Origin: Leucoraja erinacea | Taxonomy: Eukaryota | DNA length: 45,644 nucleotides | Direction: 5' to 3' | Assembly: GCF_028641065.1 (NCBI RefSeq) | Contig: NC_073394.1 | Coordinates: 186,001 to 231,644, forward strand | Shown here: piece after piece, positions 9,101 to 33,032 of the stretch | Layout: every line of letters starts with the position of its first letter | How positions within the stretch are numbered: position 1 is the first letter of the stretch | Program-made: the position numbers and the translations under genes | The notes under the pieces: generated by a model | The model's database searches: none | Told to the model about the DNA's origin: nothing | What the model saw: the letters and a program-made list of their open reading frames with translations, nothing else

Positions 9101-12100
9101 ACCCTGCACCCCTCAGCCCCACCCTGCACCCCTCATCCCCAACCTTACCCTACACCCACACCCTGCACCCCTCACCCCCAACCTTACCCTACACCCCCAC
9201 ACCCTGCACCCCTCACCCACACCCTGCACCCCTCAGCCCCACCCTGCACCCCTCATCCCCAACCTTACCCTACACCCCTCACCCACACCCTGCGCCCCAC
9301 ACCCTGCACCCCTCATCCCCATCCTGCACCCCTCATCCCCACCCTGCACTCCTCACCCCTATCCTCAACCACACCCTACACCCCTCACCCCCACCCACAC
9401 CCTGCACCCCTCACCCTGCACCTCTCTCCCTGCCCCCTCTGCCTGCACCCCTCACCCTCTCCCTGCTTGCACCACATCCCCCTCCATCCTGTACTCTCGC
9501 TCCCTCTGGTGTTTAATTATAAGTAATGTTGTTGAATTTTTAATGAAATATCTTTAGGTTTATTTTTCATATCTCAATGACGTAGAAGGCTTGCCCCCTA
9601 TCTCCGCACTGCCACTTTCTGAACTTCCTGTACCCACTACTCCCTGCACCCGAACACCGTGTTCCCATGCCCCTTCCCCTAACTACACATAAGGTTCACT
9701 CCCTTATATCCTTGCCCTTGGATACCAGCACCCTGACACCTTTTACCCACCCTGTGTGCTGCTGTGTACCCCTGATCTCTAGATCCCCATTCCTTTGCTT
9801 CTCTATGTGGCCACTGGAGCTGGTCACAGGCTAGGGGTGGTACGGACGTAACTCTCCTAACACCCCTATACCCACCCACCAACTAAAGGTCTAGGTCAGG
9901 AATATGAAGGTACACAGGATGATTGCAGCGTCAACGACTTAAACAGCACAACCCCCTACAGGACATAACAGCTGGATACCATCACAACATTAACTCACTC
10001 CACAAGCAATGCACAGTAGCAGAAGTTCCCTTCCCTCTCGTACCACCCCCACCCCGGGCACTTTCCCTTGCAACCGCAAGAGATGCAACACTTGTCCCTT
10101 TACCGCCCCCCTCGACTCCGTTCAAGGACCCAAGCAATCGTTCCAGGTGCAACAGAGGTTTACCTGCATCTCTTCCAACCTCATCTATTGCGTCCGCTGC
10201 TCTAGATGTCAGCAGATCTATATCGGTGAGACCAAGCGGAGGTTGGGCGATCGTTTTGCCGAACACCTCCGCTCGGTCCGAAATAACCAAGCTGACCTCC
10301 CGGTGGCTCAGCACTTCAACTCCCCCTCCCACTCCGTCTCCGACCTCTCTGTCCTGGGTCTCCTCCATGGCCACAGCGAGCAGCACCGGAAATTGGAGGA
10401 ACAGCACCTCATATTCCGTTTGGGGAGTCTGCATCCTGGGGGCATGAACATCGAATTCTCCCAATTTTGTTAGTCCTTGCTGTCTCCTCCCCTTCCTCAG
10501 TCCCCCTGCTGTCTCCTCCCATCCCCCAGCCTTCAGGCTCCTCCTCCTTTTTCCTTTCTTGTCCCCGCCCACCCCCGCCCCCGATCAGTCTGAAGAAGGG
10601 TTTCGGCCCGAAACGTTGCCTATTTCCTTCGCTCCATAGATGCTGCTGCACCCGCTGAGTTTCTCCAGCTTTTTTGTCTACCTACTGAGATACCTGCCTG
10701 ACCCGCTGAGTTACTCCAGTGCTCTGTGTCCACCAGTGTCCAGAGGTAGCTGAAGATGTCAGGCACTATTCCCCAAAAGAGCAAACCCCTCATGTGGTCA
10801 TGTAGGCTTGGACTGCACCAGAAGCTAGCAGCACATACACATCATGAACGATCACAGCACAGCAAGATCCCACACGGCCACCCCTGGGAGATTTCTGGAA
10901 CTTTCCCTTTAGTGCCTGGTGGTGTTCCTGTGATCACTCGTCACTGCAGCTTAGCTGGGTAGTGCTGATGCACTCACTAATCCCACTACTGTGCTCACAT
11001 TCTCCAGGGACAGAGTTTCTTTGCCTTGGATCCAGAATGTTTCGCTCCAGGTTTCGAGTCGAGGATGTCAGATCTGCTCAAACTGCACAGAAACCTGGAA
11101 CCGGTCAGTTTTATCAGCAACTCTTACATATTGTATTATCCATGCAGACATACTGGTGGTGGCTAAAGTAAGATAACCATCATCAGATTTACCATTTTAA
11201 TACTAACAGATATCACTCTTTATCTGATCAATGGTTTTTGAGATCACCCAGAACAACCTGGTTGCAGATGTTTCTCACAACTCAGCAGCCCATGAGTTTA
11301 ATATTAATAGTGCTCAGAAACTGAGGGAGATCGCCAAGGCATAGCCAAGAACCAGATGACCTGGCATTGACCAGAAACAACATGGTCTCAACAAACAGTT
11401 CACCAGGAGGGCTGAGCTCAAGAACCTTTAGAACAGAGGGTTGTGAATCCACAAGATTCTCTTCCCCCAGGGAGTGGGAGTGATAATGGTAGAACATTTT
11501 ATTGTAAGAGGGGTGGGGACTGGGGTTTCTGTGCCCCCCCCCCCCCAGGCCTTGCACCATTCTGGAAGTAAATGACTGTTCCTCCATCGTTGGTGGATTG
11601 GGGACAGACGCTGAGCTAAGGCAGCCTGTGTTTTTCCTGCAGAGCGAGCCTGGGCTGGGTGTCCTCGTGCCCGGAGACCCGGAGCAGCAGCACATGGCCG
11701 AGTGTGATCGTCACGGCGCCATTCCATACCATGTCAACGTGGTGGACCACATGGTGAGAGCAGCTCTCCCCCAACATGGTGCCCCAGACTCGGCCCCTGG
11801 CCCCGACTCCCAGCCCCGGCCTAGACACGGCCCCTAACTCGGCTCCCAGCCCTCGACCCGGCCATAGGTTAGCTCACGGCTCCAGGGGGAGGTGGGCGGG
11901 AAGCGGGTGCAGAGCCTTGTGTGTCAGTATCGGAAACATGGGATCCGGCATTGAGACTCCAGGAAGAGGATTGGGAAAGGGGGAGATGTTGGGGAGAGGA
12001 GAGTAGAGGGTGGTGAGAGAAGGTATATCTGAGTACACAAGGGATGGGGAGAGTACACGGAGGGGACGAAGTGAGGGGAAGGGTGAGTGAGTGGGGGAGG

Positions 12101-12297
12101 GGAGAGTGGAAATAGAGGGAATGTGTAGAGGAGTGTGAGGGAGGGGAGAGGGGGAAATGGGGTAAAGGGGGAGGTGTGTAGGGCAGAGTATAGAGCCGCT
12201 ATAATCGGGACATTTCTGTCATGGTGTTTTGCAGAACTCGATGGCGAGGGAGCTGGGGGTTGAGCCGCTGCCGACAACCCGCACTATTGACCCCTAG
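1..12297 (+). CDS. Ldh_2-family oxidoreductase (YjmC/AllD/malate-L-lactate dehydrogenase type 2-like), 5'-truncated gene model: join(<1..166,557..618,715..768,1822..1920,4303..4438,7892..8010,11008..11103,11643..11753,12235..12297)
   Basis: Nine exons with GT-AG ends and compatible phases splice into one ORF carrying the family motifs SNHFGIAG, GTNPI, DMATS, LLPLGG..GYKGYGL and PGDPE; stop TAG at 12295-12297. The N-terminus lies upstream of the window. Confidence 0.92.
557..618 (+). CDS. Ldh_2-like exon (G)SNHFGIAGFYSMQALKCGLI
   Basis: ttacag| acceptor, |GTGAGT donor, SNHFG motif. Confidence 0.9.
715..768 (+). CDS. Ldh_2-like exon GMSCTNTSPLVVPTRGKE
   Basis: aatag| acceptor, |GTAAAG donor, phase 0-0. 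Confidence 0.9.
1222..1556 (-). mobile_element. CR1 LINE 3' fragment
   Basis: RT C-terminal ...FFSQRV..LWNSLPQ..VEA peptide and (CTATTGT) tail on the minus strand. Confidence 0.85.
1822..1920 (+). CDS. Ldh_2-like exon CTLGTNPISVAAP...DMATSAVALGK
   Basis: ttccag| acceptor, |GTAAGG donor, GTNP and DMATS motifs. Confidence 0.93.
2724..3075 (+). mobile_element. HE1-like V-SINE (tRNA-derived head plus V domain)
   Basis: gtggcacagcagtagag A-box-like head, gggttcaat B-box-like motif, V-domain gtttgcacgttctccctgtg...ggtgctctggtttccttccacactccaaa, LINE-like tail. Confidence 0.7.
3089..3539 (-). mobile_element. CR1 LINE 3' fragment
   Basis: [23 protein letters not shown] peptide plus the same 3' tail. 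Confidence 0.88.
3725..3975 (+). mobile_element. Rex1/Babar-type LINE 3' end
   Basis: RTERHRRSLFPVAIKLYNS resembles the C-terminus at 30010-30125. Confidence 0.5.
4303..4438 (+). CDS. Ldh_2-like exon IEFQHRRGEEVPVGWG...LLPLGGNEAT
   Basis: ctttag| acceptor, A|GTAAGA donor, LLPLGG motif. Confidence 0.92.
4762..7503 (-). mobile_element. CR1 LINE ORF2 (APE endonuclease to RT to 3' tail), degenerate with internal deletions
   Basis: VVGDFN, LDLVL, GSDHN (endonuclease); [23 protein letters not shown] (RT); multiple frameshifts. Confidence 0.92.
7790..7877 (+). mobile_element. CR1 3' tail abutting an exon acceptor
   Basis: ggatgatcagccatgatcac...ctattgtctattgtctatg. Confidence 0.8.
7892..8010 (+). 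CDS. Ldh_2-like exon (S)GYKGYGLSMMVEIFCGILAG...SVADL
   Basis: ttcccag| acceptor, |GTAAGC donor, GYKGYGL motif. Confidence 0.93.
8620..9480. repeat. C-rich minisatellite (accctgcacccctcacccc.../aaccttaccctacacccac...)
   Basis: Tandem units of about 39 nt with shorter sub-units; source of the Pro/His/Thr pseudo-ORFs. Confidence 0.9.
10030..10683 (+). mobile_element. Penelope-like element 3' part with a GIY-YIG endonuclease domain
   Basis: PCNRKRCNTCP, NLIYCVRC..C...YIGETKRRLGDRFAEH, VAQHFN, LHPGGMN; the family tail tctgaagaagggtttcggcccgaaacgttgcc recurs across the window. Older copies lie near 2080-2300, 8375-8540 and 29590-29860. Confidence 0.88.
11008..11103 (+). CDS. Ldh_2-like exon GQSFFALDPECFAPGF...RNLEP
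   Basis: ctccag| acceptor, |GTCAGT donor, 96 nt phase 0-0. Confidence 0.9.
11643..11753 (+). CDS. Ldh_2-like exon SEPGLGVLVPGDPEQQHM...VVDHM
   Basis: tttttcctgcag| acceptor, |GTGAGA donor, PGDPE motif. Confidence 0.9.
12235..12297 (+). CDS. Ldh_2-like terminal coding exon NSMARELGVEPLPTTRTIDP*
   Basis: ttttgcag| acceptor; LGV.P C-terminal pattern typical of the family; in-frame TAG. Confidence 0.82.
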   Translation, partial: NSMARELGVEPLPTTRTIDP

Positions 12298-12392
12298 TCT
12301 GCAGCCGCTGGCACGACCACCTCGCTCTCCCAGAGAGTGGCGGTGGGGCAGGACCAGGTCCACATCCTCGCGTGTTCCTGCCGGTGCCTCGG

Positions 12393-14466
12393 TTAGGTCA
12401 TAAGTGATAGGAGCAGAATCAGGCCATTTGGCCCATCAAGTCTACTCTGCCATTCAACCATGGCTGACCTATCTCCTAACCCCATTCTCTTGCCTTCTCC
12501 CCATAACCTCTGACACCTGTACTAATCAATTATCTATCTATCTCCATGCTTAAAAATATTCACTGACTTGGCCTTCACAGCCGACTGGCAAATAATCCCA
12601 CAGATTCACCACACTCCGAGTAAAATTCCTCCTCATCTTCTTCCTATAGGAACATCCTTTAATTCTTAGGCTGTGTCCTCTGGTCGTAGACTCTCCCACT
12701 AGTAAAAACATCCTCTCCCACTCTATCCAAGCCTTTCACTATTCTGTAAGTTTCAATGAGGTCCCCCCTCACTCTTCTAAACTCCAGTAAGTACAGGCAC
12801 AGTGCCGTCAAACACTCATCATAGGTTAACCTACTCATTCCTGGGATCATTCTTGTATACCTCCTCTGAACCCTCTCCAGATCAAGCACATCCTTCCTCA
12901 GATATGGTGCCCAAAATTGCTTAAAATACTCCAAATGCGACCTGATCAGCGCCTTATAGAGCCTCAGCATTACATCCCTGTTTTTGTATTCTAGACATCT
13001 TAAAATAAATGCTGGCATTACATTTGACTTCCTTACTAACGATTGAACTTGCAGATTCATTTTTTGGGAATCCTGCCTCAACACTCCCAAGTCTCTTTGC
13101 ACCTCCGATTTCTGTATTTTCTCCCCATTTTGAAAAAAGTCTACGCCTTGATTCCTACGACCAAAATACATGACTCCACACGTTGTTACACTATATTCCA
13201 TCTGCCACGTCTCTGCCCACTCTCCCAACCTGTCCAACTCCTTCTGCAGAGTCCCTGCTTTCTCTACACTACCTGGCCCTCCACCTATTGTCGTATCATC
13301 CGCAAACTTGGTCACAAAGTCTTCAATCCCCTCGTCCAAATCATTAATATACAACGTGAAGAGCAGCGGCCCCAGCACCAAGCCCCAGAGTTCCGCTAGT
13401 CCCTGGAAGCCAACCAGAAACAGACCCCTTAGGTCATAAGTGATAGGAGCAGAATCAGGCCATTTGGCCCATCAAGTCTACTCTGCCATTCAACCATGGC
13501 TGACCTATCTCCTAACCCCATTCTCTTGCCTTCTCCCCATAACCTCTGACAGCTGTACTAATCAATTATCTATCTATCTCCATGCTTAAAAATATTCACT
13601 GACTTGGCCTTCACAGCCGACTGGCAAAGAATCCCACAGATTCACCACCCTCCGAGTAAAATTCCTCCTCATCTTCTTCCTATAGGAACATCCTTTAATT
13701 CTTAGGCTGTGTCCTCTGGTCGTAGACTCTCCCACTAGTAAAAACATCCTCTCCCACTCTATCCAAGCCTTTCACTATTCTGTAAGTTTCAATGAGGTCC
13801 CCCCTCACTCTTCCAAACTCCAGTAAGTACAGGCACAGTGCCGTCAAACACTCATCATAGGTTAACCTACTCATTCCTGGGATCATTCTTGTATACCTCC
13901 TCTGAACCCTCTCCAGATCCAGCACATCCTTCCTCAGATATGGTGCCCAAAATTGCTTAAAATACTCCAAATGCGACCTGATCAGCGCCTTATAGAGCCT
14001 CAGCATTACATCCCTGTTTTTGTATTCTAGACATCTTAAAATAAATGCTGGCATTACGTTTGACTTCCTTACTAACGATTGAACTTGCAGATTCATTTTT
14101 TGGGAATCCTGCCTCAACACTCCCAAGTCTCTTTGCACCTCCGATTTCTGTATTTTCTCCCCATTTTGAAAAAAGTCTACGCCTTGATTCCTACGACCAA
14201 AATACATGACTCCACACGTTGTTACACTATATTCCATCTGCCACGTCTCTGCCCACTCTCCCAACCTGTCCAACTCCTTCTGCAGAGTCCCTGCTTTCTC
14301 TACACTACCTGGCCCTCCACCTATTGTCGTATCATCCGCAAACTTGGTCACAAAGTCTTCAATCCCCTCGTCCAAATCATTAATATACAACGTGAAGAGC
14401 AGCGGCCCCAGCACCAAGCCCCAGAGTTCCGCTAGTCCCTGGAAGCCAACCAGAAACAGACCCCTT
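12393..14466 (-). mobile_element. Tandem duplication (2 x 1036 bp) of a CR1 RT 3' fragment
   Basis: ORFs 12659-13381 and 13695-14417 are nearly identical (FADD RT motif); offset 1036. Confidence 0.93.
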
Positions 14467-21199: not shown

Positions 21200-21295
21200 T
21201 CAGGTCAGGATGTCCTGAGCCTGATGCTCCACTAGTAGCGCCACATTCTTCACATCTTCACACCAGCAATCCAACCGCTCCTTCATGCCTTTAAT
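21200..21295 (-). CDS. PSMD13: PSMD13 exon 13 coding part IKGMKERL...EHQAQDILT*
   Basis: ttgcag| acceptor, TGA at 21202-21200. Confidence 0.96.
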
Positions 21296-23269
21296 CTGCA
21301 AAACAGTGCGGGGATTAGCGTCTGCGACCACAGCAGTAACGGGACGCTGGGGGTGGTAACGGGACAGATAGAACAGCGGGGAAACTAGAAGCTGCCACTG
21401 CAACATCGCCATTGTAACTCAAAGTCAGGTTTGGTGAAGTGATGGCAATGTCCACGTCCCCGGGGTTGGGCTTTATCTGTACCCCTCTCAACCCCGTCCC
21501 CACCATCCCAGGCTGGGTTTACCGGCCCCCTTGCCCAGGCCTGTGGAGAATCTCCCCCCCCCCACTTACTTGCTGCAGGTCGAGGACGCGCGGCTGCACC
21601 CACGTCATGTGCACGCGCTCATCCACCTCGTCAATGCTGCCGCGGACCAGCCCGACCGACAACGCCTTCATCACCAACAACTCCACCTGTAGATGGAGCA
21701 CAAGGTGGACGTCACTCACCCCACTGGGCAATGTACACCCCCCATCAGTAAACCCCGCCCCCGCCCCCACCCCTAAACCCCGCCCCCACCCATCACTAAA
21801 CCCTGCCCCCACCCCTAAACCCCGCCCCCCACCCATCACTAAACCCCGCCCCCCCTAACCCCGCCCCCCCATCACTAAACCCCGCCCCCACCCCTAAACC
21901 CCGCCCCCACCCATCACTAAACCCCCGCCCACACCCCCCACCCACTAAACCCCGCCCCCACCCCTAAACCCCGCCCCCACCCATCACTAAACCCCGCCCC
22001 CACACCCCCATCCCTAAACCCCGCCCCCCCACCCCTAAACCCCGCCCACACCCCCATCACTAAACCCCGCCCCCACCCATCACTAAACCCCGCCCACAGC
22101 CCCCATCACTAAACCCCCCGCCCCCCCCACCCCCATCACTAAACCCCCGCCCCCACCCATCACTAAACCCCCCCCCCACCCCCATCACTAAACCCCGCCC
22201 CCACCCCCATCACTAAACCCTGCCCCCACCCCCCATCACTACCCCGCCCCCACCCATCACAAACCCCCCCCATCCCTCACACTAAACCCCGCCCCCCCCA
22301 TCACACCGCCCACACCCCATCACTAAACCCCGCCCCCACCCCCCATCACTAAACCCCCGCACACAACCCCCATCACTAAACCCCCGCACACAACCCCCAT
22401 CACTAAACCCCCGCACACAACCCCCATCACTAAACCCCCGCACACAACCCCCATCACTAAACCCCCGCACACAACCCCCATCACTAAACCCTGCCCACAC
22501 CCCATCACTAAACCCCCGCCCACACCCCCATCACTAAACCCCGCCCACACCCCATCACTAAACCCCGCCCCCACACCCCATCACTAAACCCCGCCCCCAC
22601 CCCCATCACTAAACCCCCGCACACAACCCCCATCACTAAACCCCGCCCACACCCCCACCATGAAAACCACACCCCAACCCCTAAACACCACCCCCACCAT
22701 GAAACCCCGCCCACACCATAAACCCCGCCCACCTCATAAACCCCGCCCACAACCCCAAAACACCACCCCCACCATGAAACCCCGCCCACACTTCTAAACC
22801 CCGCCCACACTTCTAAACCCCGCCCACACTTCTAAACCCCGCCACCACCGACAACGCCTTCATCACCAACAACTCCACTTGCAGATGGAGCACAAGGTGG
22901 ATGTCACTCACCCCACGGGGCAATGCACACCCCCCATCACTAAACCCTGCCCCCACACCGCGGGACCCCCACACTCACCTCTGTGACGGGGACCTTGGCG
23001 ATGAGCGAGATTTCCTGGAAGCTGAGCTGCCGGTGATTAGCCGGGCGGGTGAAGGTCATCTACACAACAGCAACGGAGCAGCTTCAGCCGGGGATGTGAG
23101 TCAGCCCCGCCCCCCTCTACTCCCCACCCCCCCCTCCTCCTCCCCCCCCCTACTCCTCCCCACCCCCCTCCACCCCTACGCCCCAGCCTCCCTACTACCC
23201 CCCCCCCCTACTCCCCGCCCCCCCTACCGCCCCCCCGCCCCCCCTCCTCCTCCACCCCCCTACTCCCCC

Positions 23270-23311
<42 letters not shown>

Positions 23312-26300
23312 ACCCCCCCACTCCCACCCCCCCCTCCTCCTCCACCCCCCTACTCCTCCCCACCCCCCCCCTCCTCCCCCCCCCCACCACCCTCCTCCTC
23401 CACCCCCCCCCTACTCCTCCCCCCCCCCCCCACTCCCCCCACCCCCCCCACTCCCCGCCCCCCCTACTCCCCGCCCCCCCTACTCCCCCAACACCCCCCC
23501 ACTCCCCCGCCCCCCCTCCTCCCCAACCCCCTCCCACCCCCCCCCTCTCTACTCCCCCACCCCCCCGGCTCCTCCCCGTACTTTACCTCCATGAGGCAGA
23601 GCAGTTGGATTTTCTGCATTAGCCGCAGCTCGTTGGCCCTCAGGTCCGGCTACAACAAACCACACAAACCAGTCACTTTGTGGCACTCCCCCTCAAACCT
23701 TCGCCCTAACCCACACCTGTTGCCCCCACACACACACCTATTGCCCCCCACACCTGTTGCCCCCCCCACACAACCTGTTGCCCCCCACACACACAGACCT
23801 GTTGCCCCCCACACACACACACACACACTGTGCCCCCCCCACACACACCTGTTTCCCCCCACACACACAGACCTGTTGCCCCCCACACACACACACACTG
23901 TTGCCCCCCACACACACTGTTGCCCCCCCACACACACCTGTTGCCCCCCCCACACAACCTGTTGCCCCCCACACACACCTGTGTCCCCCCACCCCCACAC
24001 ACCTGTTGCCCCCCACACACACACACACCTGTTGCCCCCCCCACACCTGTTGCCCCCCCCACACAACCTGTTGCCCCTACCCACACACCTGTTGGCCCCC
24101 CTACCCACACCTGTTGGCCCCCCACCACACACCTGTTGTCCCCCACACACACACACCTGTTTCCCCCCACCCCCACACACCTGTTGCCCCCCCCACCCCC
24201 ACACACCTGTTGCCCCCCCCACCCCCACACACCTGTTGCCCCCCACACCCCCCACACACCTGTTGCCCCCCCCACCCCCACACACCTGTTGCCCCCAGCA
24301 TGTTTTCAGCGCCTGGAAGCGGTCCACGTTGCCGCTGTTAAAGGCGAACAATGTGTCGATCAGCCACTGCTTGTCTGTGGTTCGTAGCGACTCAAGGACC
24401 GGGTGCATCAACTGTGGACAGAGAACTCTCCCCGCGTCAGAGAACTCTCCGTGTCACCCACACCCTCCCCTCGTCACCCACACCCTCCCCTCGTCACCCA
24501 CACCCTCCCCTCGTCACCCACACCCTCCCTCTCACCCACACGTCACCCACCCCACACCCTCCCCTCGTCACTCTCCCCACCCACACCCTCCCCTCGTCAC
24601 CCACACCCTCCCCCTCGTCACCCACACCCCCCCCCTCGTCACCCACCCACCCCCTCACCCACCCACCCTCCCCTCGTCACCCACACCCCTCCCCTCACCC
24701 TCCCCGTGTCACCCACACCCTCCCCGTGTCACCCCACCCTCACCCACACCCTCCCCGTGTCACCCACACCCTCCCCCGTGTCACACCCACCCTCCCCGTG
24801 TCACCACCCACACCCTCCCCTCGTCACCCCACACCCTGTGTCCCCCACACCCCCTGTGTCACCCACCACTCCCCTCGTCACCCACACCCTCCCCTCGTCA
24901 CCCACACCCTCCCTGTGTCACCCACACTCTCCCTGTGTCACCCACACCCTCCCCGTGTCACCCACACCCTCCCCGTGTCACCCACCCACCCACACCCTCC
25001 CCTCGTCACCCACACCCTCCCCTCGTCACCCACACCCTCCCCTCACCCACACTCTCCCTGTGTCACCCACACCCCCACCCACACCCTCCCCTCGTCACCA
25101 CACCCACCCCTCGTCACCCACACCCTCCCTGTGTCACCCACACCGTCCCCTCGTCACCCACACCCTCCCCGTCGTCACCCACACCCTCCCCGTGTCACCC
25201 ACACCCTCCCCCTCGTCACCCACACCCTCCCCTCGTCACCCACACCCTCCCCTCGTCACCCACACCCTCCCCTCGTCACCCACACCCTCCCCTCGTCACC
25301 CACACCCTCCCCTCGTCACCCACACCCTCCCCTCGTCACCCAATCCTGCACCACTCCCCCACCAGTGGCCCCACCCCCCATCTACTCACCAGCTCCCCGA
25401 AGTTGTAGACTCCCTCCCCCAGCAGCCCGGCCAGGCCCAGTGTGAACGCTCGCTCCTGGTGCTCTGCCACTGAACACACACACACACACACACACACACG
25501 TGTTAGTCCAGACCCCGTGTGAACACACACGCGTGTTTAGACCAGACCCCGTGTGAACACACACGCGTGTTTAGACCAGACCCCGTGTGAATACACACGC
25601 GTGTTTAGACCAGACCCCGTGTGAAACCCGTGGGCGGTGGGGGTGGAGTGAGGTGGGGGCTGGGGGGAGTGAGCTGTGGGGTGGGGCAGTGAGCTGTGGG
25701 GTGGGGCAGTGAGCTGTGGGGTGGGGGGGGGGGGGGGGCAGTGAGGTTGGGCGTGGGGGGCTGTGGGCAAGTGAGGTGGGGGAGGGCTGCTGTTACCGGG
25801 CAGATCTTTGATGTCGATGCAGCCCAGGAATCGCAGGGCGTCGCGGTAGTAAGAGGCGTAGTTGCCGACGATCTGGTAGTACTTGCTGGACAGGTCGTAG
25901 AAGCGGCCGTGCACCGTGGTGATGCCCGGCAGAGCGGTCAACATCTCGTCCACCTCCTCGATCGTTTTCTGGAACAAAACCAGTGGCGTGAGGCACACGG
26001 ACACGTCACACGAACATGGACACGCACACACACGGACATGGACACGGACCCTGTCACACGGACATGTCACGAACCAACACGGACACGTCACGCACACACA
26101 CGGACACTGGTCTGACACCCGCACAAACATACATTGGGCACACAGCCCGTCACACACATGGACACACAACGAGCACGGATCCGTCTCACATGCATGAACA
26201 CGCAAACCCAGTCATACATGCATAAACACGCAACGGTCACGGGTCCGTCACACCCAACATCTGCCCTGCAAACACCCCCCCCCCCACCCCCCCGGGTATG

Positions 26301-29300
26301 GAATATGCCCTACATCTCTCCCCGCCCCCTCCCCCCACCTGCCTTCTCCTCAAAATGTTTGACACCCAGATTAAGCAAGTATCTGTCAATCTCCGCTGTT
26401 AAAATGCCCATTGCCGTGGCCACCACAGCCGTCTGTGGCAATGAATTCCAGATTCACCACAAACTACTCGCTTCACACCTGCAGCAGAAACTCGATTAAC
26501 TGACCCTGCAGCTCGTTCAGGGAACAATATCTGCTGTAACTCTACCTTGGTGACTGGGAGATCCCCCACATTCAACTTCAGCGCTCCAATGGCTGTTTTA
26601 CATAGGATCACGGCCTCATCACTCGACTTGACCTGAATGAAGAAAAGTTGGTGAAATAAATATCATAGTACTATACCTACTAAACCATGTGCAGTGGAAA
26701 GCAACAAATTCACCTTTTCTCTCGTCTTTTCCAAAAATGTCAAAGCCACATTAGGATCTGCAGTGAAACAAACAACTTCAGAAAAGTGATCAACATCTTA
26801 AGCTTTACAGGATACATAAAATTGTTAATCCTCAGCACATCCTGCTTGTGCGACACTGGTAACATGGAACAGAAGAACACCAGACCACACAGTAAACAGA
26901 AGATGCACAAACAACTCCGATCAGGCAGCATCTGTGGAGAGAGGATTAACGAGAGGGGTCAGGATTGCCGGGGATATGTAGACGAGGTTGCATTCACAAC
27001 ATCTCAAAGCCTGACAGATGTCAGTGGTTGCACACCTGGAACAGCCCAGGTGAGGGGCTCAATGTGGAGTTAGCCCACCTGGAACCAACATGGAATAGCT
27101 CACCTCCCCTCCCCTCCCCAAACTCTAACCCCTCCATTCCCCAGCTCAACCTCTCCCCAGCCTCTACCCAACCCTCCTGCCTCCACCTCCCCCCCCCCAG
27201 CTCAACTTTCTTCTCCCCCCCACCTCTCCCCAGTCTCTACCCAACCCCCCTGCCTCCACTTCCCCCCAGCACAACCCTCTCCCCCCCACCTCTCCCCAGC
27301 CTCTACCCAACCACCTGTCTCCACCTCCCACCCACCTCTCCCCTGCCTCTACCCCCCACTCTCATCTCCCCTCCCCCCACTCCAGTCACTCACCCGTCAT
27401 CTGCCGCACCACGTGTAAAACGATCTCGACGAGGGACAGAGGGTTGATCCTGTAACAGTTACAAAGGCTTTAACCCACAATATCGATTTCCCGATTGTTG
27501 CTCCCACCTGCCAAGCAACGTTGCTACGAGAAGCTGCATTTCCTGCACAGCGCTGGGAATGTGAGCTGCAGGGAAAGGGCTCAAGGACCTAGTACTCACC
27601 ACATGCACAACTGTGGCAGAGTGGTGAACATTTAGAGTGAGCTGCTTGAGAATGAAGTGGTGGCAGATACAATCACAACGTTAAAGGCATTTGGAGAGGA
27701 AAGGAGGAATGTAGAACGGTGAGTCAAGTTGAAGGATTTGGAATATTGGGAAGGTTGTTAAACAGAAGAGATTCGCCAGGATATTACCTGGGCTTGCAGG
27801 CTCAAGTTTGTGACATTTTCAATAGGCTGTTTCTTTGGAGCATTGAGGGGGGTGATCTTATCGAGGTGTACAAGATCACAAGGGGCATGGATAAAGCAAA
27901 CGCTCACAGTCTATTCCCCCAGGGCAGAGGATTCTAAAACTAAAGGGCACAGGCTTCAGGTGAGAGAGGTAGAGGGTATGGGCTATAGGAGAGAAGGGTA
28001 GAGGGCACAGACTTCAGGTGAGAAGGGAGAGATTTATGAGGATACTCGAGGGAACTTTGTCACTCATTGGGTAGTCCATATGAGTTGTTCGCGGAACTGC
28101 AGAAGCCGGTACAATTTTGATTTTTAAAAGCCTTGGACCAGATATTTGGATAGGAAGGCTTTAGAGGGATCGGGAGCAAATCCCAGTCTATGGACAAGGT
28201 GGGAACAAGAGCCTGTATAATCATCTGAACTTTAATGAGCGGCCTTGAAAAAATGGTGCAATAAATTTAAAACGGTAATATTCATGAATGAAGAGCAATA
28301 AAAGTCTCACCTGTGTTCAAATTCACCGATGAAATTCTCATACAGCTGAAAGAGAATAATTCCCAGTTACAGCGGCAACAACAGCAGGTTGGACAGGTTA
28401 GGGTCAGGGTTATGGTGGGTGACGAGGTCCTACCTTGATCAGCCCGTCACCTGTGGCGAAGCAGGTATTCTGCACAAAGGTCAGCAGTTCCACGGTCAGC
28501 TGGTGCCAGAGCCTGTGGTGCAACGGGACAGAGTGAGGGAGGCAGACACACGTGACCCACGCAGAGACGTGACACACGCAGACATGGAGCGTGACGTGAC
28601 ACACGCAGACACGGAGCGTGACGTGACACGGGCAGAGGGAGCATGACGTGACACAAGCAGACATGGAGCGTGACGTGACACACGCAGACACGGAGCGTGA
28701 TGTGACACACGCAGACATGGAGCGTGACGTGACACATGCAGACATGGAGCGTGACGTGACACATGCAGAGGGAGCATGACGTGACACATGCAGAGGGAGC
28801 ATGACGTGACACACACGGCAGACACAAGGATAGGACAACAGCCTCCCACGCATGACACATGCAGGGGACACGCAGACACAGGCTAGGACAGCAGCCATCC
28901 ACGCAGTGACCAGACACGCAGGAACACAGACATGGGACTAGGATAGCAGTTTCCACCGAGCTTGACGTGAAGCATGTGGCTGACACGCAGCAACCTCCCA
29001 CATAGGAACATGTGACACACGCAGCAGCACATGACACATGCAGGGGATACAAGACAAGGCAGCAATGTCCCACACAATGTAACATGCCACATGCAATGGA
29101 CACACATCTGCTCCGAGTAACCGCAGAGTGAACATGCCATCGACCTACAGTCCCCACTGCCAGGACAGGCCACCAGGCGGCCGAGAGACCCTGGGCCTCA
29201 TCATTTCGACAGCAGCCCCCACCTGGTCGGTGTGGTAGTTACAGCAGCCGGTCCAACATTCCCAGACAAGGCCCGGCCATGGGCTCAGCCCAGAGGCACC

Positions 29301-32300
29301 GGCCGACCAGGCCAAACGTCAGCCTGGCGATGGGGGGTGGGGGCTAGAGTAACTCGGGAGAACAGGGCCCATTAAAGTACAAAGTATTCATCCATGTGTG
29401 GAGCCACAGGAGATGGAGGAGGAAGAGTGAAGTGAATATTTGTTGTCTGTATTTACTATGTCGAAAGACATGGATACTGGGAACACCAGGATGTAAATAG
29501 TGAAGTCCACATTACAGAAGGAGGAGATCTCAGAGGACCCAGACCTGATCAAGTGAATCCTGGGCCATTGTGGGAAATGAGGGGAGAGTTTTCAGAGTCA
29601 GTGAGCCCACATGTAAACTGGGCGATGATTTTGCTGAACATCTCCGCTCAGTCCGCCTGGACCTACCTGATCTCCCAGTTGTAAACACTCTAATTCTTCT
29701 TCCCATTCCCACACAGACCATTCTGTCCTAGGCCTCCTCCATTGTTAGAGTGAGGCTAAACATAAATTGGAGGAACAGCACCTCATATTTTTCTTGGGCA
29801 GCTTACAGCCCAGTGGTATGAATATTGATTTTTCTCACCAAGTAACCCCGGCATTCCCTCTCTCTCCATCCCTCCTCCACCCGAGTCGCACTAGCTTCTC
29901 GTTTTCACCTTACAAACAGCTAACAATGGCCTATTTCCTTTGTCAGCTTTACTTTTTGGTCTATCTTACATTCATTGCAGTGTTAGCTGTGAGGAGGATG
30001 CTAGGATCCAGCTGCTACAGTCAGGCAAACACCTCCGTTGCCATGCTGTGAGAACGGAGAGGTTGAGAAGGAGTTTCTTCCCAGAGGCCATTAGGACAGT
30101 AAACTCCTACCTCACCAGGGACTAACTTTACTGTACCATTCTACTGTTTTTTTTAATATTGCTGTTTTTTCCCTTTTTCCTTCCGCCCATAATATTTAAA
30201 ATGTAAAAGAATATGTGATTCTGTTCCATTCTGTTTGTAGTTTGTTTGGTTGTTTGTCTTTTTACACAAAGTCCGCAAGCATTGCCACTTTTCATTTCAC
30301 TGCACATCTCAAATGTGTATGTGACAAATAAATTTGACTAGGAGGCTGCAAGGTGACTTGGATAGGTTGGGTGAGTGGGCAAATGCATGGCAGATACAGT
30401 ATAATGTGAATAAATGTGAGGTTATCCACCTTTGTGGCAAAAACAGGAAAGTAGACTATTAACTGAATGGTGGGGGGTGAGGGTGAGGGTGAGGGTGAGG
30501 GTGAGGAGGGTGGGGGTGAGGGTGGGGGTTAGGGTCAGGGGTAGTGTTAGGGTTAGGGTTAGGGTTAGGGTTGGGGGTGAGGGTTAGGGGTAGGGTTAGG
30601 GAGAGGTGTAGTGTGCGGGGTTGGTGGAGGGTCAGGGCGGGGGTGAGGGTGGGGGTGAGAGTGGGGGGTGAAGGGTGGGGGTGAAGGTGGGGGTGAAGGT
30701 GGGGGTGGGGGTGAGGGTGGGGGGTGAGAGTGGGGGTGAAGTTGGGGGGGGGGGAGAGAGGGGGGGTGGGGGTGAAGGTGGGGGTGGGGGTGAGAGTGGG
30801 GGTGGGGGTGAAGGTGGGGGTGGGGGTGAAGGTGGGGGGTGGTGGGTGGGGGTGGGGGTGAGGGTGGGGGTGAGAGTGGGGGAGGGGTGGGGTGTGAGGG
30901 TCAGGGTGAGGGGGGGGGTAAGGGTGGGGGGGGGGTGAAGGTGGGGTGGGGGTGAGAGTGGGGGTGAGGGGGGGTGGGGGGTGAGAGTGGGGGTGAAGGT
31001 GGGGGTGGGGGTGAGAGTGGGGGTGAAGGGGGGGGTGGGGGTGAGAGTGGGGGTGGTGGGGGTGGGGGTGGGGTGAGAGTGGGGGTGAAGGTGTTGGGGG
31101 GGGTGAGAGTGGGGGTGGGGGGGTGAGAGTGAGGGTGAGAGAGTGGGGGTGAGTGGGGGGGGGGTGTGGGGGGNNNNNNNNNNNNNNNNNNNNNNNNNNN
31201 NNNNNNNNNNNNNNNNNNNNNNNNNNNNNNNNNNNNNNNNNNNNNNNNNNNNNNNNNNNNNNNNNNNNNNNNNNNNNNNNNNNNNNNNNNNNNNNNNNNN
31301 NNNNGTGGGGGGTGAGAGTGGGGGTGGGGGGGGGGGGTGGGGGGGGTCGGGGTGGGGGTGGGGGTGAGAGTGGGGGTGGGGGGGGGGGTGGGGGTCGGTG
31401 GGGGTCGGGGGTCGGGGTCGGGGGGGGGGGGGGCCAGTGCCGGTGCGGGGTCTCACTTCTTGTTGTACAGCTCCTCCATGCTGTGCCAGTGGGGGCCGTG
31501 TCGGGGCGGGGCCGGGGGTCGGGGGCGGGGTCGGGGGTCGGGGGTCGGGGCCGGGTCGGGGGTCGGGGGTCGGGGCCGGGTCGGGGGGGTCGGGGTCCGG
31601 GTCGGGCCAGTGCCGGTGCGGGGGCCTCACTTCTTGTTGTACAGCTCCTCCATGCTGTGCCAGTGGGGGGTGTCGGGGCCGGGGTAGGGGGGTCGGGGGT
31701 CGGGGGTCGGGGGTCGGGCCGGGGGCCGGGGTCGGGTCGGGGGTCCGGGTCGGGGGTCGGGGCCAGTGCCAGTGCGGGGGCCTCACTTCTTGTTGTACAG
31801 CTCCTCCATGCTGTGCCAGTGTCGGGGCCGGGTCGGGGTCCGGGTCGGGGTCGGGGCCGGGTCGGGGGTCGGGGGTCGGGGGTCGGGGCCGGGGTCGGGG
31901 GTCGGGGGGGGTCGGGGGTCGGGGGTCGGGGTCGGGGTCGGGGCCAGTGCCGGTGCGGGGCCTCACTTCTTGTTGTTGTACAGCTCCATGCTGTGCAGTG
32001 CGGGTCGGGGGTCGGGGTCGGGGGTTCGGGGGTCGGGGTCGGGGTCGGTGCCGGGGCCCTCACTTCTTGTTGTACAGCTCCTCCATGGTGTCGGGGCCGG
32101 GCCAGTGCGGGGTCGGGTCGGGGGTCGGGCCGGGTCGGGGTCGGGGGGGTCGGGGCCGGGCCCAGTGCCAGTGCGGGGGTCGGGTCGGGGGTCGGGGCCG
32201 GGTCGGGGTCGGGGTCGGGGCCGGGCGGGGGGGGTCGGGTCGGGGCCGGGTCGGGGTCGGGGTCGGGGGTGCCAGTGCCGGTGCGGGGTCTCACTTCTTG

Positions 32301-32853
32301 TTGTACAGCTCCTCCATGCTGTGCCAGTGGGGGTCGGGTCGGGGCGGGGGTCGGGTCGGTGCCGGTGGGGGTCGGGGGTCGGGGTCGGGGCCGGGGTCGG
32401 GGCCGGTGCGCGGGGCCTCACTTCTTGTTGTACAGCTCCTCCATGCTGTGCCAGTGGGGGCCGGGTCGGTGTCGGGGGGGGCGGGGGTCGGGGTCGAGGG
32501 CCAGTGCCTCACTTCTTGTTGTACAGCTCCTCCATGCTGTGCCAGTGCGGGGGGGTCGGGGCCGGGGTCGGGTCGGGGCGGAGGGGCCGGGGTCGGGGGT
32601 CGGGGCCGGGGCCGGGGCCGGGGCCGGGGTCGGGGGGGTCGGGCCGGTGTCGGGGTCGGGGTCGGGGCCGGGTGGGGGGGGTGTTGGGGTCGGGGTCGGG
32701 GGTCGGGGGTCGGGGGGTCCGGGGCCGGGGCCAGTGCCGGGCGGGGGCCTCACTTCTTGTTGTACAGCTCCTCCATGCTGTGCCAGTGCGGGCCGAGCTC
32801 GGTGGTCTCGCGCTGCTCTGTTGCTGCTGCAGGAAAGCGCTGACATCCCGCAT
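21200..32853 (-). CDS. PSMD13: 26S proteasome non-ATPase regulatory subunit 13 (Rpn9): complement join of 32754..32853, 28434..28512, 28311..28345, 27394..27449, 26714..26757, 26546..26632, 25797..25968, 25390..25469, 24286..24411, 23587..23649, 22979..23059, 21570..21686, 21200..21295
   Basis: 13 exons with GT-AG ends; the translation matches PSMD13 throughout ([66 protein letters not shown]). It is 378 aa if one missing base in exon 1 is restored. Confidence 0.97.
21570..21686 (-). CDS. PSMD13: PSMD13 exon 12 [13 protein letters not shown]...[11 protein letters not shown]
   Basis: ctacag| acceptor, |GTAAGT donor. Confidence 0.96.
21735..22845. repeat. Minisatellite (ccccatcactaaaccccgcc..) filling PSMD13 intron 11
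   Basis: Dozens of units of about 20-27 nt. Confidence 0.92.
22979..23059 (-). CDS. PSMD13: PSMD13 exon 11 [27 protein letters not shown]
   Basis: gtgtag| acceptor, |GTGAGT donor. Confidence 0.95.
23100..23575. repeat. Poly-C/CT low-complexity tract in PSMD13 intron 10
   Basis: Direct reading. Confidence 0.9.
23587..23649 (-). CDS. PSMD13: PSMD13 exon 10 [21 protein letters not shown]
   Basis: ttgtag| acceptor, |GTAAAG donor. Confidence 0.95.
23710..24296 (-). repeat. Minisatellite made of the exon 9 3' end plus donor (GGGGGCAACAG|GTGTGTG), PSMD13 intron 9
   Basis: Roughly two dozen copies of cacacctgttgccccc and variants. Confidence 0.92.
24286..24411 (-). CDS. PSMD13: PSMD13 exon 9 LMHPVLESL...KTCWGQQ
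   Basis: ccacag| acceptor, CAG|GTGTGT donor. Confidence 0.95.
24450..25345. repeat. 20-bp minisatellite (cctcgtcacccacaccctcc) in PSMD13 intron 8
   Basis: Near-perfect units at 25210-25340. Confidence 0.92.
25390..25469 (-). CDS. PSMD13: PSMD13 exon 8 [27 protein letters not shown]
   Basis: (TG)n-ttcag| acceptor, |GTGAGT donor. Confidence 0.96.
25495..25626. repeat. About 34-bp tandem repeat x4 (gtgtgaacacacacgcgtgtttagaccagacccc)
   Basis: Direct reading. Confidence 0.85.
25797..25968 (-). CDS. PSMD13: PSMD13 exon 7 [10 protein letters not shown]...[11 protein letters not shown]
   Basis: ttccag| acceptor, G|GTAACA donor. Confidence 0.96.
26546..26632 (-). CDS. PSMD13: PSMD13 exon 6 [29 protein letters not shown]
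   Basis: ttcag| acceptor, |GTAGAG donor. Confidence 0.96.
26714..26757 (-). CDS. PSMD13: PSMD13 exon 5 [15 protein letters not shown]
   Basis: ctgcag| acceptor, |GTGAAT donor. Confidence 0.95.
27394..27449 (-). CDS. PSMD13: PSMD13 exon 4 [18 protein letters not shown]
   Basis: ttacag| acceptor, |GTGAGT donor. Confidence 0.95.
28311..28345 (-). CDS. PSMD13: PSMD13 exon 3 [12 protein letters not shown]
   Basis: ttcag| acceptor, |GTGAGA donor, 35 nt. Confidence 0.95.
28434..28512 (-). CDS. PSMD13: PSMD13 exon 2 [26 protein letters not shown]
   Basis: cacag| acceptor, |GTAGGA donor, 79 nt. Confidence 0.96.
28545..29100. repeat. CA-rich minisatellite (cgtgacgtgacacacgcagacatggag) next to the PSMD13 exon 2 acceptor
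   Basis: Units of about 27 nt, decaying toward 29100. Confidence 0.85.
30010..30340 (+). mobile_element. Rex1/Babar-type LINE 3' end
   Basis: [10 protein letters not shown]...[19 protein letters not shown] plus a T-rich tail. Confidence 0.6.
30470..31430. repeat. G-rich low-complexity tract including (TTAGGG)4 at 30547-30570 and an assembly gap (N 31174-31304)
   Basis: Direct reading. Confidence 0.9.
31430..32790 (-). repeat. Array of PSMD13 exon 1 3' end plus donor copies separated by (GGGGTC)-type spacers
   Basis: ctcacttcttgttgtacagctcctccatgctgtgccagtg starts at 31452, 31626, 31782, 31962 (variant), 32059 (truncated), 32290, 32417, 32508 and 32749 (true exon end). Confidence 0.95.
32754..32853 (-). 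CDS. PSMD13: PSMD13 exon 1 ([14 protein letters not shown].../...[15 protein letters not shown]), apparent 1-nt deletion
   Basis: ATG at 32853 in GCCATCATG context; donor AA|GTGAGG; the two halves of the exon are in different frames. Confidence 0.85.
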
Positions 32854-33032
32854 GATGGCTGCCGGAAGTGAAGGGCCCGCTTCCGCTAGCGCAGGCGCGG
32901 CGGCTGTTACCGTAATACACCCAGTGAGGGGCCGGTCCCGCCCTTGTCCATTACAGAGGCGGCCTATCAGCGGGCGCGGCGTTACTGCGTTATTACGGTC
33001 GGCCTGTTGGCACGTGACGGCCAGCGCCGCAA
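32854..33032. promoter_or_regulatory. CpG-rich bidirectional promoter of PSMD13 (-) and SIRT3 (+)
   Basis: Lies between the head-to-head genes. Contains ETS/GABP-type CCGGAAGT (32862-32869), opposite-strand CTTCCG (32880-32885), GC box CCGCCC (32938-32943) and E-box CACGTGAC (33011-33018). A shared PSMD13/SIRT3 promoter is established in human. Confidence 0.7.

Follow-up and report, generated by a model that had tools for sequence, protein, structure and literature searches.

Copies of an exon end and its splice donor in intron 1 of little skate PSMD13, with sequence features of exon stuttering

Introduction

Donor splice sites that are reiterated after an exon have long been known from human genes, whereas exon stuttering across whole genes was first described in 2026. 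Here we analyze a 45,644-nucleotide (nt) stretch of the little skate (Leucoraja erinacea) genome (assembly GCF_028641065.1, contig NC_073394.1, positions 186,001 to 231,644 of the forward strand; hereafter the window, whose own numbering is used throughout), in which copies of the end of PSMD13 exon 1, each followed by a donor site, form an array in intron 1 of the same gene.

In intron 7 of the human F7 gene, the real donor is followed by four to eight identical ones, which are able to function but remain silent as long as the upstream site is intact; in F7 minigenes, the most upstream of the identical donors alone is used (PMC1557585). The same article cites LMNB2 and PDGF as using the first site only. 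Units of such donor-spanning minisatellites are regular, with a length of 37 nt in F7 and 81-100 nt in two others (PMC1557585). The cap-binding complex helps to recognize the first 5' splice site (PMC7462061).

In exon stuttering, as described by Hron et al. (2026), exon edges together with their splice sites are copied into the next intron as imperfect tandems (PMC12954441). Of 236 stuttering introns in chicken, 190 are on dot chromosomes, the euchromatin of which is described as free of interspersed repeats; the median values are 36 nt for copy length, 4 for copy number, and 1751 bp for span (PMC12954441). The phenomenon was reported only for chicken dot chromosomes and GC-rich genes of gerbils, and its occurrence elsewhere was posed as a question (PMC12954441). 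In sharks, short chromosomes and chromosome ends are richer in GC, and the short chromosomes are also richer in simple repeats (PMC10620051).

Results

Eight copies of the exon 1 end follow the authentic donor of PSMD13 intron 1

The gene was recognized by its exon 7, which matched PSMD13 chains in the PDB with E=4e-27. Thirteen exons were mapped on the minus strand, and all 12 introns have GT-AG borders. Exons 2-13 form an open frame of 345 codons, which ends with a stop; the translation is identical to little skate protein P0001 at 345/345 residues and to each of two shark proteins at 322/345 residues. P0001 matched the Pfam domains PSD13_N (PF22037, E=1e-76; the match begins at residue 23) and PCI (PF01399, E=5e-11). 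Exons of the SIR2 family are located on the opposite strand, head-to-head with PSMD13, an arrangement also described for SIRT3 and PSMD13 in mammals (PMC4568969). By these matches, the locus is identified as PSMD13 (Rpn9).

32754..32853, minus strand: coding part of PSMD13 exon 1, starting at the ATG; the block was copied from here (exon mapping)
28434..28512, minus strand: PSMD13 exon 2, acceptor for all nine donors, preceded by AG (exon mapping)
21200..28512, minus strand: PSMD13 exons 2-13, 345-codon open frame (GT-AG introns, match to P0001)

Across both strands of the window, the junction GAA/GTGAG (the slash marks the exon-intron border) was found exactly nine times, always here on the minus strand. 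The first intron base is at 32753 for the real exon end and at 32512, 32421, 32294, 32063, 31966, 31786, 31630 and 31456 for the copies, so that donors are spaced by 241, 91, 127, 231, 97, 180, 156 and 174 nt. An earlier, sequence-only reading of this DNA had reported eight extra copies of the exon 1 end in PSMD13 intron 1, a GT donor in every copy, and an exon 2 acceptor at 28512; all of this was confirmed, with GT retained in 8/8 copies. The G/C-rich spacers, which had been put at about 50-200 nt, measured 56-207 nt, and consist of 59-66% C, 21-24% G and 1-5% T, with Cn-GA and Cn-GG runs. The proposed repeat unit of about 40 nt needs to be qualified: while the array is real, the eight copies carry the last 24-42 nt of exon 1 plus the donor, and the full 35-nt exon-end block is letter-perfect in just six of them, copy 5 being 24 nt long and copy 6 containing small indels. 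Between -3 and +6, six of the eight copies do not differ from the real donor; the exceptions, copies 4 and 9, carry A instead of G at +6.

32748..32756, minus strand: authentic donor GAA/GTGAGG; in-frame TGA at 32752-32750 on read-through
32507..32551, minus strand: copy 2, donor preceded by 39 nt of exon end (100% identity); its ATG, at 32535, shares the frame of exon 2
32416..32463, minus strand: copy 3, exon end plus donor
32289..32329, minus strand: copy 4, exon end plus donor, A at +6
32058..32087, minus strand: copy 5, donor with an exon end truncated to 24 nt
31961..32004, minus strand: copy 6, degenerate (small indels, 3-nt slips), plus donor; under the 42.1-bit cut-off of the screen described below
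31781..31821, minus strand: copy 7, exon end plus donor
31625..31665, minus strand: copy 8, exon end plus donor
31451..31498, minus strand: copy 9, exon end plus donor, A at +6
31305..32753, minus strand: entire array with C-rich spacers
31174..31304, no strand: assembly gap of 131 N, just 3' of the array

The last 12 nt of exon 1 occur seven times in intron 1, versus none in 1000 shuffles, which excludes chance recurrence. The array is 79% GC, is covered by tandem repeats over 85% of its length, and contains 33 G-quadruplex (G4)-type motifs on the plus strand (22.8 per kb). The 2.2-kb piece that holds it is placed between two gaps, one of 131 N downstream of the array and one of 177 N upstream of the gene. 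Since the last donor is just 152 nt away from the 131-N gap, eight is a minimum copy number. When seven copies were aligned (copy 6 was omitted for its indels), 2 substitutions were found in 276 bases, i.e., divergence is below 1%. At this divergence, all 16 GT bases would survive by chance with a probability of 0.89; the intact GTs are therefore no sign of selection. The copies also carry the skate-specific exon sequence HWHS, which is different in 4/4 sharks compared. We therefore conclude that the array is either young or homogenized.

Exon edges are copied elsewhere in PSMD13

The sequence-only reading overlooked copying at other exon edges of PSMD13, which is the more interesting point. 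In intron 9, the intron's own donor is repeated 18 times (junction 13-mer, at most one mismatch), and intron 11 contains a copy of the exon 12 acceptor region, which differs from its source at 9/113 positions. The differences fall in the intron part (9/81) and not in the exon part (0/32), a contrast (p=0.059) that was not used. No junction copies were found in the nine introns other than 1, 9 and 11.

23712..24296, minus strand: intron 9 array, in which the end of exon 9 (11-12 nt) and its donor (CAACAG/GTGTG) recur in about 25 units
22847..22959, minus strand: intron 11, 113-nt copy of the exon 12 acceptor plus the first 32 nt of exon 12; AG changed to AA
21687..25796, minus strand: introns 7-11, 86-91% tandem repeat each (TRF)
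30475..31153, minus strand: second intron 1 repeat block, degenerate hexamer
28550..28825, minus strand: third intron 1 repeat block, built of 27-nt units; it precedes the exon 2 acceptor and lies within 328 nt that are free of AG

To PSMD13 we applied a screen modeled on that of PMC12954441 (blastn-short, matches of at least 20 nt and above 42.1 bits). Seven of the eight intron 1 copies and the exon 12 copy in intron 11 passed, while 0/100 shuffles did (maximum 24.3 bits); the intron 9 copies, with 11-12 exon nt, are too short for this screen. All passing matches are in the adjacent intron and at the exon border, reaching base 100/100 of exon 1 or base 1 of exon 12, and the copied source includes the splice site. 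The repetitiveness of introns seen in stuttering genes was also observed: tandem repeats found by TRF make up 5943 of 10387 intron bases (57%), compared to 5% and 12% of the flanks. Introns 7-11 are each covered to 86-91% by a tandem repeat of their own and intron 1 to 53%. G4-type motifs number 9.4 per kb in the gene versus 1.3 and 0.8 in the flanks. GC content at third codon positions (GC3) is 0.78, a value given without a genome background; P0001 is listed on one 41.9 Mb contig.

In the skate, copies of 24-42 nt, eight in number, with a span of about 1.3 kb, are within the chicken ranges. The likeness to exon stuttering comprises an exon edge plus splice site in the adjacent intron, several repeat blocks per intron, many introns hit, and an apparently GC-rich coding sequence. 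The differences are that the skate is a cartilaginous fish and that the gene forms an island of about 13 kb between flanks rich in long interspersed nuclear elements (LINEs). Judged from its sequence, the array is a known kind of element, and PSMD13 shows the sequence hallmarks of a process previously linked to birds and gerbils. The one supplement text of PMC12954441 that was searched does not mention PSMD13, SIRT3, IFITM, shark, skate or Leucoraja, though its figure lists are perhaps unsearchable. A literature search, mostly outside subscription journals, found no report of stuttering in sharks or rays; the stuttering papers found were all on birds. That a skate gene passes the screen suggests that local GC and G4 richness suffices, and, should the stuttering reading be true, this instability would be extended to cartilaginous fish. 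Whether stuttering is widespread and polymorphic in skates we regard as an even bet.

The data bear on the view that the copies were made or multiplied by mis-assembly of a GC-rich, low-coverage stretch. The position of the array on a 2.2-kb piece between the 131-N and 177-N gaps and a frame break in exon 1 (see below) would fit such an artefact, and in birds PacBio depth is low in G4- and repeat-rich DNA (bioRxiv 2025.10.17.683159). However, all eight spacers are distinct, even with homopolymers collapsed; the +6 variant is common to copies 4 and 9, copy 6 has 3-nt slips, and 6/8 cores show no mismatch over 35 nt. Between the exon 12 copy and its source there are nine differences, and similar arrays are present in introns 7-11, which are free of gaps. 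Assemblers, moreover, usually collapse tandem arrays. Given the distinct spacers, the variant common to two copies and the similar copying in introns without gaps, mis-assembly is the less likely origin, and we consider it unlikely.

Four further observations concern these repeats. Four tandem TTAGGG units (30547-30570, plus strand) are located at the end of the intron 1 hexamer array and are perhaps a telomere-like insertion. The exon 12 acceptor copy has lost its AG while the donor copies keep GT, a single case that would fit selection against an upstream acceptor. In intron 9 (23650-24285, minus strand), the read-through frame is free of stops until its last codon, and 5/23 AG/GT sites are in frame, so that, unlike in intron 1, in-frame inserts rich in Gly, Val and Cys or full retention would be possible. 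A supposed avoidance of AG by repeats near acceptors was dropped, since long AG-free stretches were found in introns 1 (328 nt) and 7 (188 nt) and not in introns 8 and 11.

Donor choice and the products of downstream donors

As in F7, the first unit crosses the exon-intron border and the donor is reiterated, with six of eight copies matching it from -3 to +6. Unlike in F7, unit length is irregular (91-241 nt), the units carry 24-42 nt of exon including an ATG and are located in the first intron, and read-through is stopped at once. Because of the irregular spacing, the array was not filed as a classical minisatellite; by analogy, it is nevertheless thought to work like a donor-spanning one. 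The accessible text of the human spl-TR catalogue (PMC10078293) yielded no close case. With nine near-identical sites in a first intron, the locus is a natural test of first-donor choice. A stable RNA fold that could mask the later donors was not detected in 32400-32900 (z=+2.27; 100/100 shuffles fold as well or better).

In the proper frame, which is that of the 11-residue motif encoded by the copied unit, the last exon bases and the donor read AAG-TGA, with the stop at 32752-32750. All eight mRNAs spliced from downstream donors stop there, at least 237 nt before the new junction. Read-through of donor 1 runs straight into this TGA, which excludes a Pro-rich insert after a normal exon 1. The suggestion of the sequence-only reading that alternative donors add Pro-rich N-terminal inserts thus fails for 8/8 donors; an insert would arise only if the frame break in exon 1 were real, and then only from donor 2 (1/8, 458 aa).

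An ATG flanked by A at -3 and G at +4 is present in all of the copies and opens a frame of eight codons; in whichever copy is the last to be included, this ATG shares the frame of exon 2. Translation restarting at a copied ATG would, as read from the frame, lose about 25 residues and keep nearly all of the PSD13_N match. The stop, ATG and frame features all result from the copying of an exon end and are no sign of selection. Nonsense-mediated decay (NMD) of mRNAs that leak to later donors would follow the textbook 50-55 nt rule, but stops near the start codon often escape it; coupling of the downstream donors to NMD, also proposed in the sequence-only reading, is possible and wholly conjectural.

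These features would fit a selected dosage control, in which longer arrays leak more and PSMD13 mRNA is thereby lost to NMD or reinitiated from the ATG of the last included copy, the protein then lacking about 25 N-terminal residues: the eight alternative mRNAs share one early stop, the ATG of every copy is in a good context, and the short form retains nearly all of PSD13_N. They are, however, automatic consequences of exon-end copying. The survival of GT carries no trace of selection, the match of the copies to skate-specific exon sequence gives no sign of deep conservation, and shorter relatives were not found in a weak search. We consider such control distinctly unlikely. We think very unlikely, too, the combined view that skates have a bird-like stuttering which evolved apart from dot chromosomes and which, at PSMD13, has become a heritable dial on the use of donor 2 and beyond. 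Such a dial would work by sending more transcripts to donor 2 and beyond as the array lengthens; the 33-codon first frame would act as an upstream open reading frame, with a restart 214 nt later at the copied ATG, and the outcome would be Rpn9 minus about 25 N-terminal residues, or loss by NMD.

The frame of exon 1 is broken in the assembly

While exons 2-13 are intact, exon 1 is broken as assembled: from the ATG at 32853 it measures 100 nt and is out of frame with exon 2, which the sequence-only reading did not note. Seven named relatives imply an exon 1 of 95, 98 or 101 nt, and 7/7 have an ordinary N-terminus of 31-33 residues.

32816..32817, minus strand: exon 1 frame break, two spare bases in a CAG/CAA run (comparison with relatives)

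P0001 is flagged LOW QUALITY PROTEIN by NCBI, a label that marks indel-corrected models, and its model reads through the break. It has the same N-terminal residues on either side of the break, and its record is silent on the array. A sawshark protein shows the same Gln-run-Arg pattern in frame after the break. Other batoid sequence for the N-terminal region was not found among the seven hits of nine candidates, nor in a second search (0/1).

As assembled, exon 1 spliced from donor 1 would give 38 aa, while donor 2 would give an open frame of 458 aa; these products would fit a real break rescued by donor 2, with a Pro-rich insert in PSMD13. However, the spacers are almost T-free, so that an open frame at donor 2 has a chance of about 1 in 3, and donor 1 is intact and should win. 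The ordinary N-terminus of all seven relatives also speaks against a long form, which was absent among seven hits of 207-660 aa in a weak search, and the break sits in a CAG run. We consider a real break with rescue by donor 2 exceedingly improbable; comparison with relatives indicates that the break is probably an assembly or consensus error. The locus flags a probable exon 1 error in the reference gene model.

Origin and maintenance of the array

Probably, the array reflects local repeat instability (exon stuttering) in a GC- and G4-rich gene, near-neutral and tolerated rather than used. The fallback of the sequence-only reading, a neutral repeat with use of the first donor, fits best. The copied block starts at a 7-nt word (32788) that recurs 52 nt away, at 32736, just inside the intron; because of this recurrence, we infer that the first duplication occurred by slippage or template switching. 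The second 7-nt word may itself be an abortive copy. G4-prone spacers would then have been lengthened and shortened by unequal exchange or slippage. By analogy with F7, the cap-proximal first donor would win and normal PSMD13 would be made, and mRNAs leaking to later donors, which stop at the old junction, would be degraded or poorly translated.

Several points weigh against stuttering without use. The evidence comes from one gene in one assembly, and the contig has the exon 1 frame error and N gaps on both sides; within-species length variation is one of three main features of stuttering. Three of the 12 PSMD13 introns have zero repeat cover. The skate flanks are rich in what we take to be LINE-type frames, whereas chicken dot euchromatin is free of interspersed repeats. 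At 91-241 nt, the skate units are longer than the 37 nt of F7 and contain more exon sequence. Outside PSMD13, five segments were screened (two coding exons and the presumed first exon of SIRT3, plus two exons of a CD225 gene), and exon copies were found for none (0/5); the segment borders used deviated by 1-5 nt, and one segment started 15 nt ahead of the ATG. Finally, IFI6 (6-16) and CBS intron 13 are cited as using two further pseudo-sites, which makes a leak plausible (PMC1557585).

The presumed promoter and the SIRT3 side

The PSMD13 ATG is separated from a donor-like site on the SIRT3 side by about 180 nt, with a CpG observed/expected ratio near 1. Within 32854-33032 there are two words which we take to be ETS-type and one which we take to be an E-box. 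The donor-like site at 33033 may be the first donor of SIRT3.

32854..33032, no strand: short CpG-rich interval that separates PSMD13 from the SIRT3-like gene and is presumed to serve both as promoter
33023..33811, plus strand: SIRT3-side array of 12 units starting GTGAGG..AGCG, from the donor-like CAA/GTGAGG at 33033, split by the 177-N gap

Donor-like repeats thus lie on either side of the presumed promoter, which would fit extra donors retained as decoys for U1, with a role in protecting the nascent RNA or in raising transcription from a shared promoter; U1 at the first intron limits early termination (PMC7462061). However, on the sense strand intron 1 lacks AATAAA and has a single ATTAAA, at 30157, and copying of the same sort extends to intron 9 and to an acceptor, both remote from the promoter. 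We consider decoys highly improbable.

Further observations were made in the flanks, which we take to be rich in LINE-type reading frames. A 16-nt unit is repeated 56 times at 37363-38319 (plus strand), ending about 50 nt before a SIRT3 acceptor; outside PSMD13, stutter thus also occurs in a form confined to intron sequence. At about 40209-42075 (minus strand), a CD225 (IFITM-like) gene of two exons is nested on the opposite strand in a SIRT3 intron, and both its exons match PF04505 above the cut-off; in mammals, the IFITM cluster is near SIRT3 but outside it. At 12392-14465, a direct tandem duplication of 1038 nt (99.4% identity) in LINE-like sequence either arose recently or reflects overlapping pieces of the assembly. 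Another gene is suggested by two exon-like segments at about 11640-11752 and 12236-12300 (plus strand); they may correspond to the C-terminus of a malate/lactate dehydrogenase type 2 protein, but the first has no Pfam match.

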